A DNA stretch of 38,628 bases. Source: a virus (taxonomy: Duplodnaviria; Heunggongvirae; Uroviricota; Caudoviricetes). The stretch covers positions 1 through 38,628 of IMG/VR virus record IMGVR_UViG_2711768037_000009; one strand, 5' to 3'. The stretch's first letter is position 1, and the number at the start of each line of letters is the position of its first letter. This document shows positions 5,351 through 8,756 of this stretch, one piece after another. Made by a program: the position numbers and the translations under genes. The notes beneath the pieces were generated by a model that saw only the letters and a program-made list of their open reading frames with translations, was not told where the DNA came from and ran no database searches.

Positions 5351-5515
5351 ATGGCTGAATTTGCCGCATTAAGTGAGAGTATTACGATGGCAAAATTGAC
5401 CAGAGCGCAGGAGCATGACCTGCGACGCGCAATTTATGATCTTGAAAGAGTTCGTTGCAGCACATCGAAAGCAATGAGATATAGGCCACCAGTTAACGCT
5501 GGTGGCCTTAAATGA
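5351..5515 (+). CDS. Possible small protein (42-54 aa; ATG at 5351 or 5387)
   Basis: Open frame ending in TGA inside the downstream hairpin element; weak RBS. Confidence 0.25.
   Translation: MAEFAALSESITMAKLTRAQEHDLRRAIYDLERVRCSTSKAMRYRPPVNAGGLK
5483..5508 (+). other. Perfect 10-bp-stem hairpin AGGCCACCAG-ttaacg-CTGGTGGCCT; terminator-like but no U-tract
   Basis: Seen directly; related words at ~4943 and ~6200. Confidence 0.45.
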
Positions 5516-5527
5516 CCATCCTGTTCC

Positions 5528-5604
5528 CCGCAGGCTAAAAACACCAACCTCTTACCTCCAGGCAACCGACAAACCTACCTGTTCCCGTCCGGCTACCGCA
5601 ACTT
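5528..5604. repeat. Iteron-like tandem repeats, cluster 2 (3 copies, same family and orientation as cluster 1)
   Basis: GCAGGCTAAAA, CCAACCTCTTACCTCCAGGCAACCG, CCTACCTGTTCCCGTCCGGCTACCG. Confidence 0.5.
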
Positions 5605-6560: not shown

Positions 6561-6758
6561 TTAACTATGCGCTATAGCGCAATATAACGCGTTTTAAGCG
6601 CATTAATGTGTTAAGTAATGGGTATGTACTGGCAAGGATATAAAAGCGCGTCTATGGCGTTATTTTGGTGCTTGTTTTTATGTTGTTGGAGTGAGTCAAA
6701 GACAATAAAAAACGCGCTAATGATGGCGCGTTATGGTGGGAGTATTGGAAACGAAAAA

Positions 6759-6777
6759 AGCGCCCACTATGGGCGCT
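6759..6777. terminator. Bidirectional intrinsic terminator
   Basis: AGCGCCC-actat-GGGCGCT hairpin flanked by A-run upstream and T-run downstream. Confidence 0.65.
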
Positions 6778-6782
6778 CGATT

Positions 6783-7013
6783 TTATTTGTGTAAACTGAT
6801 TTTAAATCCCATTTCTACAAACGCTTTTAACATTAAAAATATATCAGCGTCGTTCACGTCTGCTTTTTTTCGCTCCTGGTCGCTCAATAAGTCAATTTTG
6901 CGCGTCGTTTCATCTATAAGCTCGACTGCGCGCCCAGCGTAACCAGCGATCCCAGCGATGCGATTAACATAATATTCATTATGGACGTTAACGCCAGCGA
7001 TAAGAACAAACAT
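6783..7013 (-). CDS. Small protein (76 aa), unknown
   Basis: ATG preceded by perfect SD AAGGAG at 8-nt spacing. Confidence 0.6.
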   Translation of the reverse strand: MFVLIAGVNVHNEYYVNRIAGIAGYAGRAVELIDETTRKIDLLSDQERKKADVNDADIFLMLKAFVEMGFKISLHK

Positions 7014-7034
7014 GATTAAGCTCCTTAAAAAAAA

Positions 7035-7238
7035 TTAAATAGAATTTTGAAGTTTTCCGATTAATGCGCTTAAACGTAAGTATTCACGTTTGCGCTTGCA
7101 ATCTCGCTTGCTGTTAAGTAAATCAGAAAACGTAAAATTTAATTGGTCGCGTTGCGCGATCAAATCATCGATTAATTCCAGTTTATAAGCGCGATACTTT
7201 GCGCGATATTCCGCGCGGATCTTGTCATAGCTGACCAT
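7035..7238 (-). CDS. Small basic coiled-coil protein (67 aa), unknown
   Basis: ATG preceded by AAGGAG; 21-nt gap to the downstream gene. Confidence 0.6.
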   Translation of the reverse strand: MVSYDKIRAEYRAKYRAYKLELIDDLIAQRDQLNFTFSDLLNSKRDCKRKREYLRLSALIGKLQNSI

Positions 7239-7254
7239 TTTAAAGCTCCTTTAA

Positions 7255-7273
7255 AGCGCCCATAGTGGGCGCT
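7255..7273. other. Hairpin AGCGCCC-atagt-GGGCGCT, inverted copy of the 6759-6777 hairpin
   Basis: Same stem, loop is the reverse complement; no U-tract. Confidence 0.5.
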
Positions 7274-7285
7274 TGATTCCATTAA

Positions 7286-7936
7286 TTACGCTTTGAAAGC
7301 ATCAGCTAAATAATTGTAGAAATCATTTTTAATGAAGCGATATTGCTGAGTACCAGCTTTTGCACTCCCAGCTCCTTTGACTTTTTCAACAAGTCCAAGA
7401 CGTTCGCAAAGATTGATCAACTGGTTGGCTTGAGTATAGCCAGCGTCCAATTTAATTTCGCACGCTTTTTTAGCTTCATTCATTAAATCGAAAACAGCGC
7501 CATTGGTGAACGTGTCGATCTCGTCGTTAATCATATCGATTAAAGCGAATACACGAGATCCAGACATATCAGCGACGGAATAAACACATTTTCCAGCTTT
7601 AATGGATTTAACCAAATAAACCAGTTTTTCCAGTGAATAACTATTAGTCATAGCGTCACGAAAAAATACTTCTGGCGCTTGTTTGCTTGCTTTAATCGCA
7701 TAGTAGAAAACAGAGCATAATTTTTCGTCTTCTACAGCGTTTACAACGTTGTTGATGAAGTAAGCAAGTTTAGTGGTCGCAGCTTGCATATTTGCTTTGT
7801 CTGCTTTAGTGTGCGTACCATTTTTATAATGTTCGTTATATGTTTGAGTTGCCAGATCTGCTTTTTCGCGCAGCTCGTCGGATACAATGGAAGCAGCTTC
7901 AATGATGGATTTTTTAGAAATGATAATGTTAGCCAT
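7286..7936 (-). CDS. Hypothetical protein (216 aa)
   Basis: ORF track 7286..7945; second ATG has AAGGA at proper spacing. Confidence 0.6.
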   Translation of the reverse strand: MANIIISKKSIIEAASIVSDELREKADLATQTYNEHYKNGTHTKADKANMQAATTKLAYFINNVVNAVEDEKLCSVFYYAIKASKQAPEVFFRDAMTNSYSLEKLVYLVKSIKAGKCVYSVADMSGSRVFALIDMINDEIDTFTNGAVFDLMNEAKKACEIKLDAGYTQANQLINLCERLGLVEKVKGAGSAKAGTQQYRFIKNDFYNYLADAFKA

Positions 7937-8197
7937 GTTGAACATCCTTACGAAAAATTAAAATGAATTTATTTTTTGCTGTCGTTAGCCAGCTCGCTTT
8001 CGACGAGTTCAATTATCGATACGTGAAAAAAGATTGCAAGTGTTTTTTTTAAATTTTTTGCAGGGGTGAAAGTCCTAGAAATAAAAGCGAGATCCTCGAA
8101 GGTGTTCCCTAAATAAATAATAAATTCCGGCTTTTGACCTTATATATTTATACGGGGAGAATTGAATGAGTGTTAAACGAAGGGCATGTAAAATAAT

Positions 8198-8215
8198 AAC
8201 CGGACTTAGCCGGTT
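8198..8215. other. Hairpin AACCGG-acttag-CCGGTT with extended AT stem; possible terminator after the 174-aa gene
   Basis: Inverted repeat seen directly; weak U-tract. Confidence 0.3.
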
Positions 8216-8231
8216 ATTATCCTTATAGAAA

Positions 8232-8756
8232 TTAAAACGGAAGGATTCGTTCAACCCAATCGAAGAAAACAAGTATTTTTCTTCCGTCTTTCAACTTAAG
8301 AGTGACCTGACAAGCATCAACGCCTCTTGATACCCCTTCTATTTCACGACCGTCTGCCATGTAGACCCTTATAGATTGGTCGTTTTGATAAGCCTTGCGA
8401 CATATCGCAAAAAAGTCACGGCGTGATGGCTGATTGTCAACATAGTCTGGATGTATTGTTAGCCTACCTTTGAACTCGCGAGCAATGCCATCGATTACAC
8501 CTGATTCAATTGTGCTAATGCGCTCAAGTGGGAGTCTTATACGATTTTCTTTATCATATGGAAGCGGGCATAAATCTAGCTTATTGCGGGAAGGCATTGT
8601 CCCCTGAACGTACATGCAAAACACCTGACCGTCTTCAAGCGTGACTCTTACAGGAATGTTGTTCTTCCGCCAGAACATAAGTATGTTTTCAGCATGTTCG
8701 TAGTCTCGCGGCCAGACTTCAGCCGGTATGCCGTAGGTGATGTCCAATGTTCTCAT
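8232..8756 (-). CDS. Hypothetical protein (174 aa) with two similar beta-rich segments
   Basis: ATG start; start overlaps the stop of the upstream gene; no domain recognised. Confidence 0.6.
   Translation of the reverse strand: MRTLDITYGIPAEVWPRDYEHAENILMFWRKNNIPVRVTLEDGQVFCMYVQGTMPSRNKLDLCPLPYDKENRIRLPLERISTIESGVIDGIAREFKGRLTIHPDYVDNQPSRRDFFAICRKAYQNDQSIRVYMADGREIEGVSRGVDACQVTLKLKDGRKILVFFDWVERILPF

Follow-up and report, generated by a model that had tools for sequence, protein, structure and literature searches.

Two small genes between copies of one hairpin in a phage-plasmid probably occupy a variable accessory-gene slot

Introduction

Why do two small genes of a tailed virus, read from the same strand and set behind the same Shine-Dalgarno (SD) sequence, lie between two copies of one 19-nt hairpin that stand in inverted orientation? 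The question arises at positions 6759-7273 of a 38,628-nt stretch of DNA (IMG/VR record IMGVR_UViG_2711768037_000009, positions 1-38,628), which as a whole is the window of this study. The genes, p67 and p76, encode proteins of 67 and 76 aa, and an earlier note on this DNA had proposed that they form a toxin-antitoxin-like (TA) cassette or a pair of regulators, highly expressed and framed by inverted hairpins. Comparison with related loci, about 180 in total, shows that the genes occur separately; they appear to be independent passengers of a variable slot downstream of a conserved gene, p219, with copies of what is probably the p219 terminator marking the borders.

The matches of the region indicate that the window derives from a phage-plasmid of the SSU5/pHCM2/pMT1 type. 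Escherichia phages PhiR41_1, CMS-2020a and Cyrano share 95-96% identity with the region, and Klebsiella phage-plasmids and Salmonella phage SSU5 are more distant relatives; the region also matches 780 plasmid records in PLSDB, Yersinia pestis pMT1 and Salmonella Typhi pHCM2 among them, and 237 of 5,426 complete E. coli genomes, in every case on a plasmid. The SSU5-type phage-plasmid group has been described previously (PMC7969092).

Results

Content of the slot downstream of p219

Both minus-strand genes of the earlier note were borne out, as was the 21-nt gap that separates them. They follow p219, which is found in every related locus at 48-100% amino acid identity:

7286..7945, minus strand: p219, longest open reading frame (ORF) 219 aa, phrog_1513, conserved gene upstream of the slot
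7035..7238, minus strand: p67, 67 aa, basic, phrog_6145, predicted helical hairpin, apparently an independent accessory gene
7014..7034, minus strand: spacer between p67 and p76, 21 nt, TTTTTTTTAAGGAGCTTAATC on the coding strand, no hairpin inside
6783..7013, minus strand: p76, 76 aa, phrog_1585, predicted ferredoxin-like fold, apparently an independent accessory gene

The presence or absence of the cassette, which the earlier note had suggested comparing among homologous genomes, was followed in two sets of IMG/VR loci, the first (93 loci) collected by an exact scan with the hairpin 19-mer and the second anchored on p219 and therefore unbiased as to the hairpin. A scan of species-representative genomes yielded only 5 loci and added little. 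One locus (L102, JAEWTL010000044.1) is labelled 'MAG: Bacillota bacterium' and holds an enterobacterial phage-plasmid region with a p219 that is 85% identical; the contig is probably a binning contaminant. The slot proved variable, ranging from empty to two genes. In the 82 p219-anchored loci classified by slot content, counted as contigs as found, not dereplicated or placed on a tree and so not counts of independent events, with p76' denoting a paralogue of p76 in relatives that is 45-51% identical to it, the contents are:

Slot empty: about 13 loci
p67 only: about 28 loci
p76 or p76' only: about 21 loci
p67 plus p76 or p76': about 18 loci
p76', hairpin, p76: about 2 loci

The same variety is seen in named elements. 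PhiR41_1 has both genes, Cyrano only the 76-aa gene, SSU5 and pJN2-26 only the 67-aa gene, and pMT1 and pHCM2 only p76'. Slot content differs even between backbones with 97-100% identical p219, and in distant relatives (p219 48-62% identical) the same slot is filled by a divergent p67 homologue or holds tandem hairpins only. Slots with p67 alone, p76 alone, both and neither are all common among relatives; the genes thus do not form an obligate pair, and the comparison lends no support to the proposal of a TA-like cassette. Judging from these loci, p67 and p76 are independent, swappable passenger genes in a variable slot downstream of p219.

Two further hallmarks of type II TA systems were looked for and neither was seen. 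No known toxin or antitoxin fold or family was matched (Pfam, NCBIfam, PADLOC and PDB by sequence), and no TA, defence or regulator family was matched by either protein. As to an autoregulated promoter or operator, the promoter scan gave no sigma-70-like site between p219 and p67, where the hairpin stands instead, and none before p67 or p76. The idea that p67 and p76 are diverged paralogues was ruled out, the two showing no similarity, and a foreign composition of the cassette was not seen (GC 36-43%, like the neighbours).

A hairpin that belongs to the slot

The two 19-nt hairpins are as previously described, AGCGCCC-ACTAT-GGGCGCT (AGCGCCCACTATGGGCGCT) at 6759-6777 and its exact reverse complement AGCGCCC-ATAGT-GGGCGCT (AGCGCCCATAGTGGGCGCT) at 7255-7273, and they are the only matches to the 19-mer in the 38.6-kb window with up to 2 mismatches (expected 0.06; 0 of 100 shuffles reach 2). 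In ViennaRNA folds the outer A/T of the 5-nt loop also pair, leaving an 8-9-bp stem and a 3-nt loop, CUA or UAG. Along the coding strand the two copies are:

7255..7273, minus strand: internal hairpin copy, AGCGCCC-ACTAT-GGGCGCT on the coding strand, the default loop of the family, 12 nt after the p219 stop codon
6748..6778, minus strand: terminal hairpin copy (6759-6777) with its TTTTTTCGTTTC tail, putative intrinsic terminator of the p219-p67-p76 unit, loop flipped to ATAGT on the coding strand

The terminal copy has the make-up of an intrinsic terminator, an 8-9-bp GC-rich stem followed by UUUUUUCG on the coding strand, and was called by the terminator scan on the minus strand (6778..6758, tail TTTTTCGTTTC; fold z-score -3.8). 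The earlier note had it as a bidirectional terminator. The scan does call both strands, with the strong tail TTTTTTCG on the minus (coding) strand, but the plus-strand tail is the complement of the p76 3' end and is absent from empty slots. Behind the stem of the internal copy there is just TTT and then AAAGGAG (RNA fold centroid -15.1 kcal/mol), and the scan did not call this copy, its UUU falling short of the U-tract of about 5 or more that is required; it is probably an attenuator or a 3'-end stabiliser and not a full terminator. From these features we infer that the terminal copy terminates the p219-p67-p76 transcript, while the internal copy, being weakened, would allow read-through by RNA polymerase and perhaps stabilise the message upstream of it.

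The same division of tails is seen across the related loci. Hairpin copies that precede a gene have the tail TTTAAAGGAG, TAGTTTTAAGGA or TTTTAAGGAG, with a T run of at most 4 in 61 of 66, and those that close the slot have TTTTTT(C/G), with a T run of at least 5 in 80 of 88. In the p219-anchored sample a hairpin stands behind the p219 stop codon in nearly all loci, empty slots included, and in the latter (L026, L034, L035, L046 and others) it stands alone, a canonical terminator with TTTTTT behind it. The exact scan placed 91 of its 93 stretches in this slot, and no phage-plasmid contig (about 100 kb) has the exact 19-mer anywhere else, so that a generic repeat of phage-plasmid genomes, or a generic terminator used throughout them as the earlier note had considered, is ruled out. 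Because the hairpin is present in empty slots, because nearly all stretches of the scan fall in the slot and because the window holds two copies only, we take it to be the intrinsic terminator of p219, belonging to the slot and not to the cassette. The suggestion that the hairpins stabilise transcripts or are traces of cassette mobility thus holds in part: they look like transcript-level elements (terminator or attenuator) and they mark the borders of gain, loss and replacement, but they are copies of a resident terminator and normally direct ones.

The two remaining stretches of the scan (L006 12915-12933 and L092 1472-1490) belong to an unrelated phage; there the identical 19-mer stands behind a gene of 65 aa, itself preceded by ORFs of 229 aa and 255 aa, and looks like an ordinary terminator. 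An Rfam search of the whole window gave no RNA family match.

SD linkers and the joints between cassettes

Each of the two genes starts behind a short linker:

7236..7251, minus strand: p67 SD linker and start codon, AAGGAGCTTTAAAATG, from the pattern scan
7011..7026, minus strand: p76 SD linker and start codon, AAGGAGCTTAATCATG, the 5' breakpoint of the p76/p76' replacement

The identical SD contexts noticed earlier stand as far as the shared AAGGAGCTT before both ATGs is concerned; the spacing is N4 and not N5, the N5 pattern having no exact match. The pattern AAGGAGCTT-N4-ATG has exactly 2 exact matches, at 7011-7026 and 7236-7251, both on the minus strand (expected 0.30; 3 of 100 shuffles reach 2). 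Among the relatives p76 and p76' always have a linker T(T)TTAAGGAGCTTAATCATG in front of them, whether behind a hairpin or behind the p67 stop codon; one and the same linker stands before both p76' and p76 (L100; CP057560), with a slightly mutated hairpin between the genes in CP057560. The p67 of SSU5 and of the Klebsiella relatives has another SD context, AAGGATAAAAATCATG, and for this reason AAGGAGCTT before p67 in the E. coli clade is most simply read as a copy of the p76-type linker, gained as the two-gene arrangement formed. The identical SD contexts are a linker shared at cassette borders and not an independent convergence on a strong ribosome-binding site.

Replacements between close relatives end at the same elements, a coincidence of breakpoints with hairpin and linker that was seen in a few pairwise cases. 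Aligned with two relatives that carry p76' for p76, the window is about 97-99% identical in the flanks and about 55% in the cassette, the identity changing precisely at AAGGAGCTTAATCATG and the terminal hairpin. Locus L142 is chimeric, an SSU5-like p219-hairpin-TAGTTTTAAGGA being joined to a Cyrano-like GCTTAATCATG-p76 with the joint inside the linker (TTTTAAGGA|GCTTAATCATG). Finally, two loci with a p219 about 48% identical (L054 1498-1603, L023 8081-8142) hold 2-3 tandem 44-bp units of hairpin plus TTTTTTGTTTCCGCTATAAAGCCACCA and no gene, and such units indicate that hairpin copies do undergo unequal exchange. The middle hairpin is present in the p76'-p76 loci and absent in all loci with p67 plus p76 or p67 plus p76'. 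Its simple loss was considered as the origin of the p67-p76 junction, but a clean 19-nt deletion does not account for the sequences.

Flips of the hairpin loop

A meaning of the inverted orientation found no support. Most relatives have direct copies, and both loops keep the default orientation in the two nearest E. coli plasmids, with identities of 99.1% and 98.8% across 561 bp, so that the inverted arrangement of the window is a recent, private event. On the coding strand, the loops of the p219-anchored sample are:

ACTAT (default): 125 hairpins
ATAGT (flipped): 15 hairpins
Other loops: 13 hairpins

The flips fall on the first copy in 8 cases and on the last in 7, and are met in single-copy slots too (L037). 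pMT1 and pHCM2 differ by a loop flip; in PhiR41_1 the upper copy is flipped and in the window the lower. Several of the 13 other loops are themselves reverse-complement pairs (ACAAT/ATTGT, ATTAT/ATAAT, ATCAT/ATGAT). Taken together with the near-perfect palindrome in which it sits, the inverted relation of the two hairpins is best read as a neutral flip of a 3-nt centre.

A second hairpin lies beyond the first:

6711..6732, minus strand: second, back-up terminator hairpin, AACGCGCC-ATCATT-AGCGCGTT followed by TTTTTATTG, from the terminator scan and the fold

Its counterparts (AACGCGCC-loop-GGCGCGTT; L102-L185) likewise have loops in both orientations, ATTGTT in 26 vs AACAAT in 8, AATGAT in 8 vs ATCATT in 8, and ATTGAT in 3 vs ATCAAT in 1, and on this ground loop inversion would be a general property of the palindromic terminators of the region. 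The frequency of a 3-base change, about equal to that of all point mutations in the loop together, suggests that a dedicated mechanism is behind it.

The proteins p67 and p76

Functions were sought in Pfam, PHROGs, NCBIfam, PADLOC and PDB profiles, by AlphaFold2 (AF2) modelling with Foldseek searches of PDB and BFVD, and for p76 by a hidden Markov model (HMM) search. p67 has about 15 basic and 9 acidic residues. Its five AF2 models are alike (predicted local distance difference test, pLDDT, 87.8), with two long helices (residues 4-32 and 47-66) joined by a short one (37-41); Foldseek found no significant structural neighbour, and Pfam, NCBIfam, PADLOC and PDB profiles no significant family match. 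A sub-threshold match to DUF6899 (E about 0.01-0.02) leads to a family for which no literature was found. The label 'MIT family metal ion transporter CorA' attached to this family (phrog_6145; SSU5_119) was rejected, since a soluble helical hairpin of 67 aa cannot form such a channel; given the model, the label looks like a propagated mis-annotation. A 92-aa protein of an ENA metagenome, P0077, has a p67-like stretch in its first ~29 residues (MISYDQIRAEYRAKYRAYKLELIDDLKAQ) and an unrelated C-terminus, a chimera which suggests that recombination can also break inside a cassette ORF.

For p76 the best AF2 model (pLDDT 81) is a ferredoxin-like beta-alpha-beta-beta-alpha-alpha-beta arrangement. 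Foldseek (PDB, BFVD) returned generic PII/Cas2/ACT-like matches only, with E of at least 5e-3 and template-modelling (TM) scores of about 0.5. The HMM search of 1.8 billion representatives put the family, a small one, at 33 clusters (50% identity); its members are stand-alone proteins about 75 aa long, in which N12, an IAGxAGY motif and a C-terminal GF are conserved. Both families are confined to Enterobacterales phage-plasmids and annotated as hypothetical. By analogy with moron-like products, p67 and p76 most likely each bind a host or phage macromolecule on their own.

Genes and signals around the slot

The 219-aa ORF of p219 probably starts too early. Alignments with its homologues begin at residue 4, most homologues are annotated with 216 aa (651 nt), and the ATG at 7936 has AAGGA 6-7 nt before it, which is why Met4 at 7936 is probably the real start (216 aa). 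The region around this start (7934-7970, 37 nt) is 78% identical to the linker between the p67 end and the p76 start (7011-7047). On the other side of the slot lies p160 (160 aa, start 5685), a convergent gene, and just upstream of it are three direct repeats of about 23 nt (5515-5595, ACCATCCTGTTCCCCGCAGGCTA-like, 74-78% identical, spaced by 28-30 nt), which could be an operator or an iteron-like array.

Two further features lie upstream of p219:

8232-8756, minus strand: FljA-family gene (Flag1_repress, E = 6e-81), same strand as the slot and two genes upstream of it
8012..8039, minus strand: sigma-70-like site TTGCAA-16-GATAAT upstream of p219, weak (9/12 matches), the only promoter candidate of the unit

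The C-terminal part of the FljA-family protein (residues 123-165) also gives weak Hfq/LSM matches, which would fit an RNA-binding regulator encoded on the slot strand. The 285-nt gap between this gene and p219 (7946-8231) is a second variable slot, with an extra gene of about 100 aa in some relatives (L004 4985-5284; L100 3264-3572). Promoter-like sites are fewer in the region than in its shuffles, hence 8012..8039 is a candidate at most. A minus-strand match, TTTACA-18-CATAGT, that overlaps the lower hairpin was rejected as a promoter of the genes themselves, pointing as it does out of the unit.

Discussion

How the slot may work

The explanation that we favour, and consider probable as a whole, is an accessory slot bounded by terminator copies, with independent genes shuffled at hairpin and linker and a neutral loop flip. 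The region would be the 3' end of a minus-strand transcription unit running from p219 through p67 to p76, with a hypervariable accessory-gene slot immediately downstream of p219 that in its ground state holds one intrinsic terminator only, AGCGCCCACTATGGGCGCT with TTTTTT behind it. Promoter-less small ORFs (p67, p76, p76') would sit between copies of this hairpin, each behind T(T)TTAAGGA(GCTT), a conserved short linker that brings a strong SD with it. The copies that precede genes would have lost most of their U-tract, permitting RNA polymerase read-through and/or protecting the 3' end of the upstream mRNA, and the last copy with its full U-tract would end the unit. Hairpin and linker together would give each cassette border about 20-35 bp of identical sequence, and there unequal or homeologous recombination between co-resident phage-plasmids may add, delete and replace cassettes; this would explain why the two genes of the window have the same SD context.

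Several points weigh against this explanation. The junction between p67 and p76 has no hairpin, an exception to the pattern in which every cassette ends in one, and needs a secondary loss. The conserved flanks p219 and p160 could alone mediate exchange of the whole slot by ordinary homologous recombination, and selection for intact genes would likewise leave its breakpoints at the borders of genes. Read-through at the internal copy and termination at the terminal copy are deduced from sequence, the model of p76 is confident in one of five AF2 runs (the other four having pLDDT 48-60), and the loci enter the comparison as contig counts.

Weighing the alternatives

If the flanks did all the work, p67 and p76 would be ordinary morons with terminators of their own, exchanged by homologous recombination in the conserved neighbouring genes, and hairpin and linker would have no part in recombination. 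That the stem is canonical and GC-rich, with a U-tract behind the terminal copy, would suit this, as would the high conservation of p219 and p160 and a cassette composition that is not distinctive. Independent terminators, however, would not be expected to have one 19-mer, loop included, common to all copies, and the variation of cassette number in 97-100% identical backbones, the gene-less tandem hairpin units and the swap breakpoints exactly at linker and hairpin speak against it as well, making this alternative unlikely, although it deserves some weight. Far less credit is due to a dedicated hairpin-specific system, resembling integron attC sites or miniature inverted-repeat transposable elements (MITEs) and transposons, in which the hairpins are recognition sites of a recombinase or transposase. 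Promoter-less ORFs bounded by a folded repeat are what it would predict and the exact 19-mer does recur in an unrelated phage context, but a perfect 8-9-bp stem within 19 nt lacks the length, bulged bases and core sites of attC, the copies have no fixed orientation (mostly direct, with sporadic flips), the hairpin of empty slots is a plain terminator, and no recombinase or transposase match was found among the four neighbouring proteins screened (p219, p67, p76 and p160), the rest of the genome not having been screened; we regard such a system as very improbable.

A role for the hairpin as RNA is slightly easier to entertain, and still improbable. Its conserved loop would be a binding or processing site, for an FljA-like or Hfq-like repressor or for RNase III, controlling p67 and p76 post-transcriptionally. 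The loop is conserved in most copies, even where p219 is about 50-60% identical, the SD lies just 4-8 nt from the stem, and the FljA-family gene with its weak Hfq/LSM similarity is encoded two genes upstream on the same strand. Yet both positions tolerate a flipped loop (CUA to UAG in the RNA) or one with point mutations, such loops making up about 18% of copies, no Rfam family is matched, and distant relatives were found by exact match, so the conservation of the loop is in part one of ascertainment. Least credible of all, and retaining hardly any probability, is the pair of the earlier note, a TA or obligate two-component regulator system highly expressed as a unit between functionally inverted hairpins. 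Two adjacent small genes on the same strand, each with a strong SD, invite that idea; the independent occurrence of the genes, their lack of similarity to TA or defence families, the lack of an upstream promoter or operator, the separate SDs with 21 nt between the genes and the absence of the inverted orientation in the closest relatives all contradict it.

Relation to known systems

The closest described analogue, as far as the comparison of layouts goes, is the promoter-early stem-loop (PeSL) of T4-type phages, a unit of stop codon, promoter, stem-loop and SD that flanks ORFans (Arbiol et al. 2010, PMC2839356; Comeau et al. 2014, PMC4122927). Genes are shuffled when PeSLs recombine with one another (PMC2839356; PMC4122927), and a strong sigma-70 early promoter is part of the definition (PMC2839356). 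Here too a repeated intergenic unit with upstream stop codon, stem-loop terminator or attenuator, SD and start codon borders small ORFans in a hyperplastic region, and the ends of insertions, deletions and replacements between close relatives fall at it. The allelic swaps at linker and hairpin therefore suggest, by analogy, short-homology modular shuffling of the kind attributed to the T4 PeSLs minus the promoter. In contrast to the PeSL, the unit described here has no sigma-70 promoter, so that the genes depend on read-through from p219; it serves one slot with 1-3 copies per genome, where the T4 type has about 50 dispersed copies, and belongs to a siphovirus-type phage-plasmid and not to a T4-like myovirus. 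One could go further and see hairpin and SD linker as an active, promoter-less counterpart of the T4 PeSL, a dedicated joint that excises and captures small ORFs (possibly through mini-circles or structure-specific processing of the palindrome), with p67 and p76/p76' as rotating anti-defence or host-takeover effectors and the loop flip as a by-product of that hairpin processing, but we hold this to be a speculation with a small chance of being right.

Morons, in the concept of Juhala and Hendrix drawn from lambdoid and other temperate phages, are small accessory genes present or absent between conserved neighbours, with a terminator behind. The slot genes share both traits, but have no promoter of their own and no deviant composition, and their terminator is a copy of the resident one and not foreign. 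With intrinsic terminators, and with intra-operon attenuator or stabiliser hairpins, the hairpin shares its GC-rich 8-9-bp stem, short loop and U-tract on the terminal copy; it departs from them in the internal copy, which has 3 U only and runs straight into the SD, and in the re-use of the same 19-mer at every cassette border. Integron attC cassettes are likewise promoter-less ORFs downstream of a fixed point, each bounded by a hairpin-forming repeat, but attC is an imperfect palindrome of 57-141 nt with core sites (R/L boxes) and extrahelical bases and goes with an adjacent IntI integrase, whereas the stem here is perfect within 19 nt and its copies appear to act as terminators. Terminal inverted repeats of transposons or MITEs, which keep a fixed inverted orientation and come with a target-site duplication, differ from the mostly direct copies, sporadic flips and single copies seen here.

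Small hairpin-loop inversions are well documented in chloroplast non-coding DNA. As there, an asymmetric centre is repeatedly swapped for its reverse complement while the stem is kept, and mutated loops occur as reverse-complement pairs; what differs is the setting, here the terminators of a phage-plasmid. By analogy the flips may arise by intra-palindrome template switching during replication, quasipalindrome template-switch mutagenesis having been described in E. coli (PMC7202029).

The slot is a promoter-less variant of known phage genome plasticity, PeSL- or moron-like, with recurrent inversion of a palindrome centre in addition, and changes no major paradigm. The recurrent loop flips provide a clean, countable case of palindrome-mediated micro-inversion outside organelles and a caveat against taking the orientation of a hairpin as a functional signal. 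SSU5/pHCM2/pMT1-like phage-plasmids are widespread in clinical Enterobacterales, plasmids of Y. pestis and S. Typhi being members of the family, and for them the slot offers a convenient natural system in which to follow the gain and loss of accessory genes by short-homology recombination, together with candidate host-interaction proteins.

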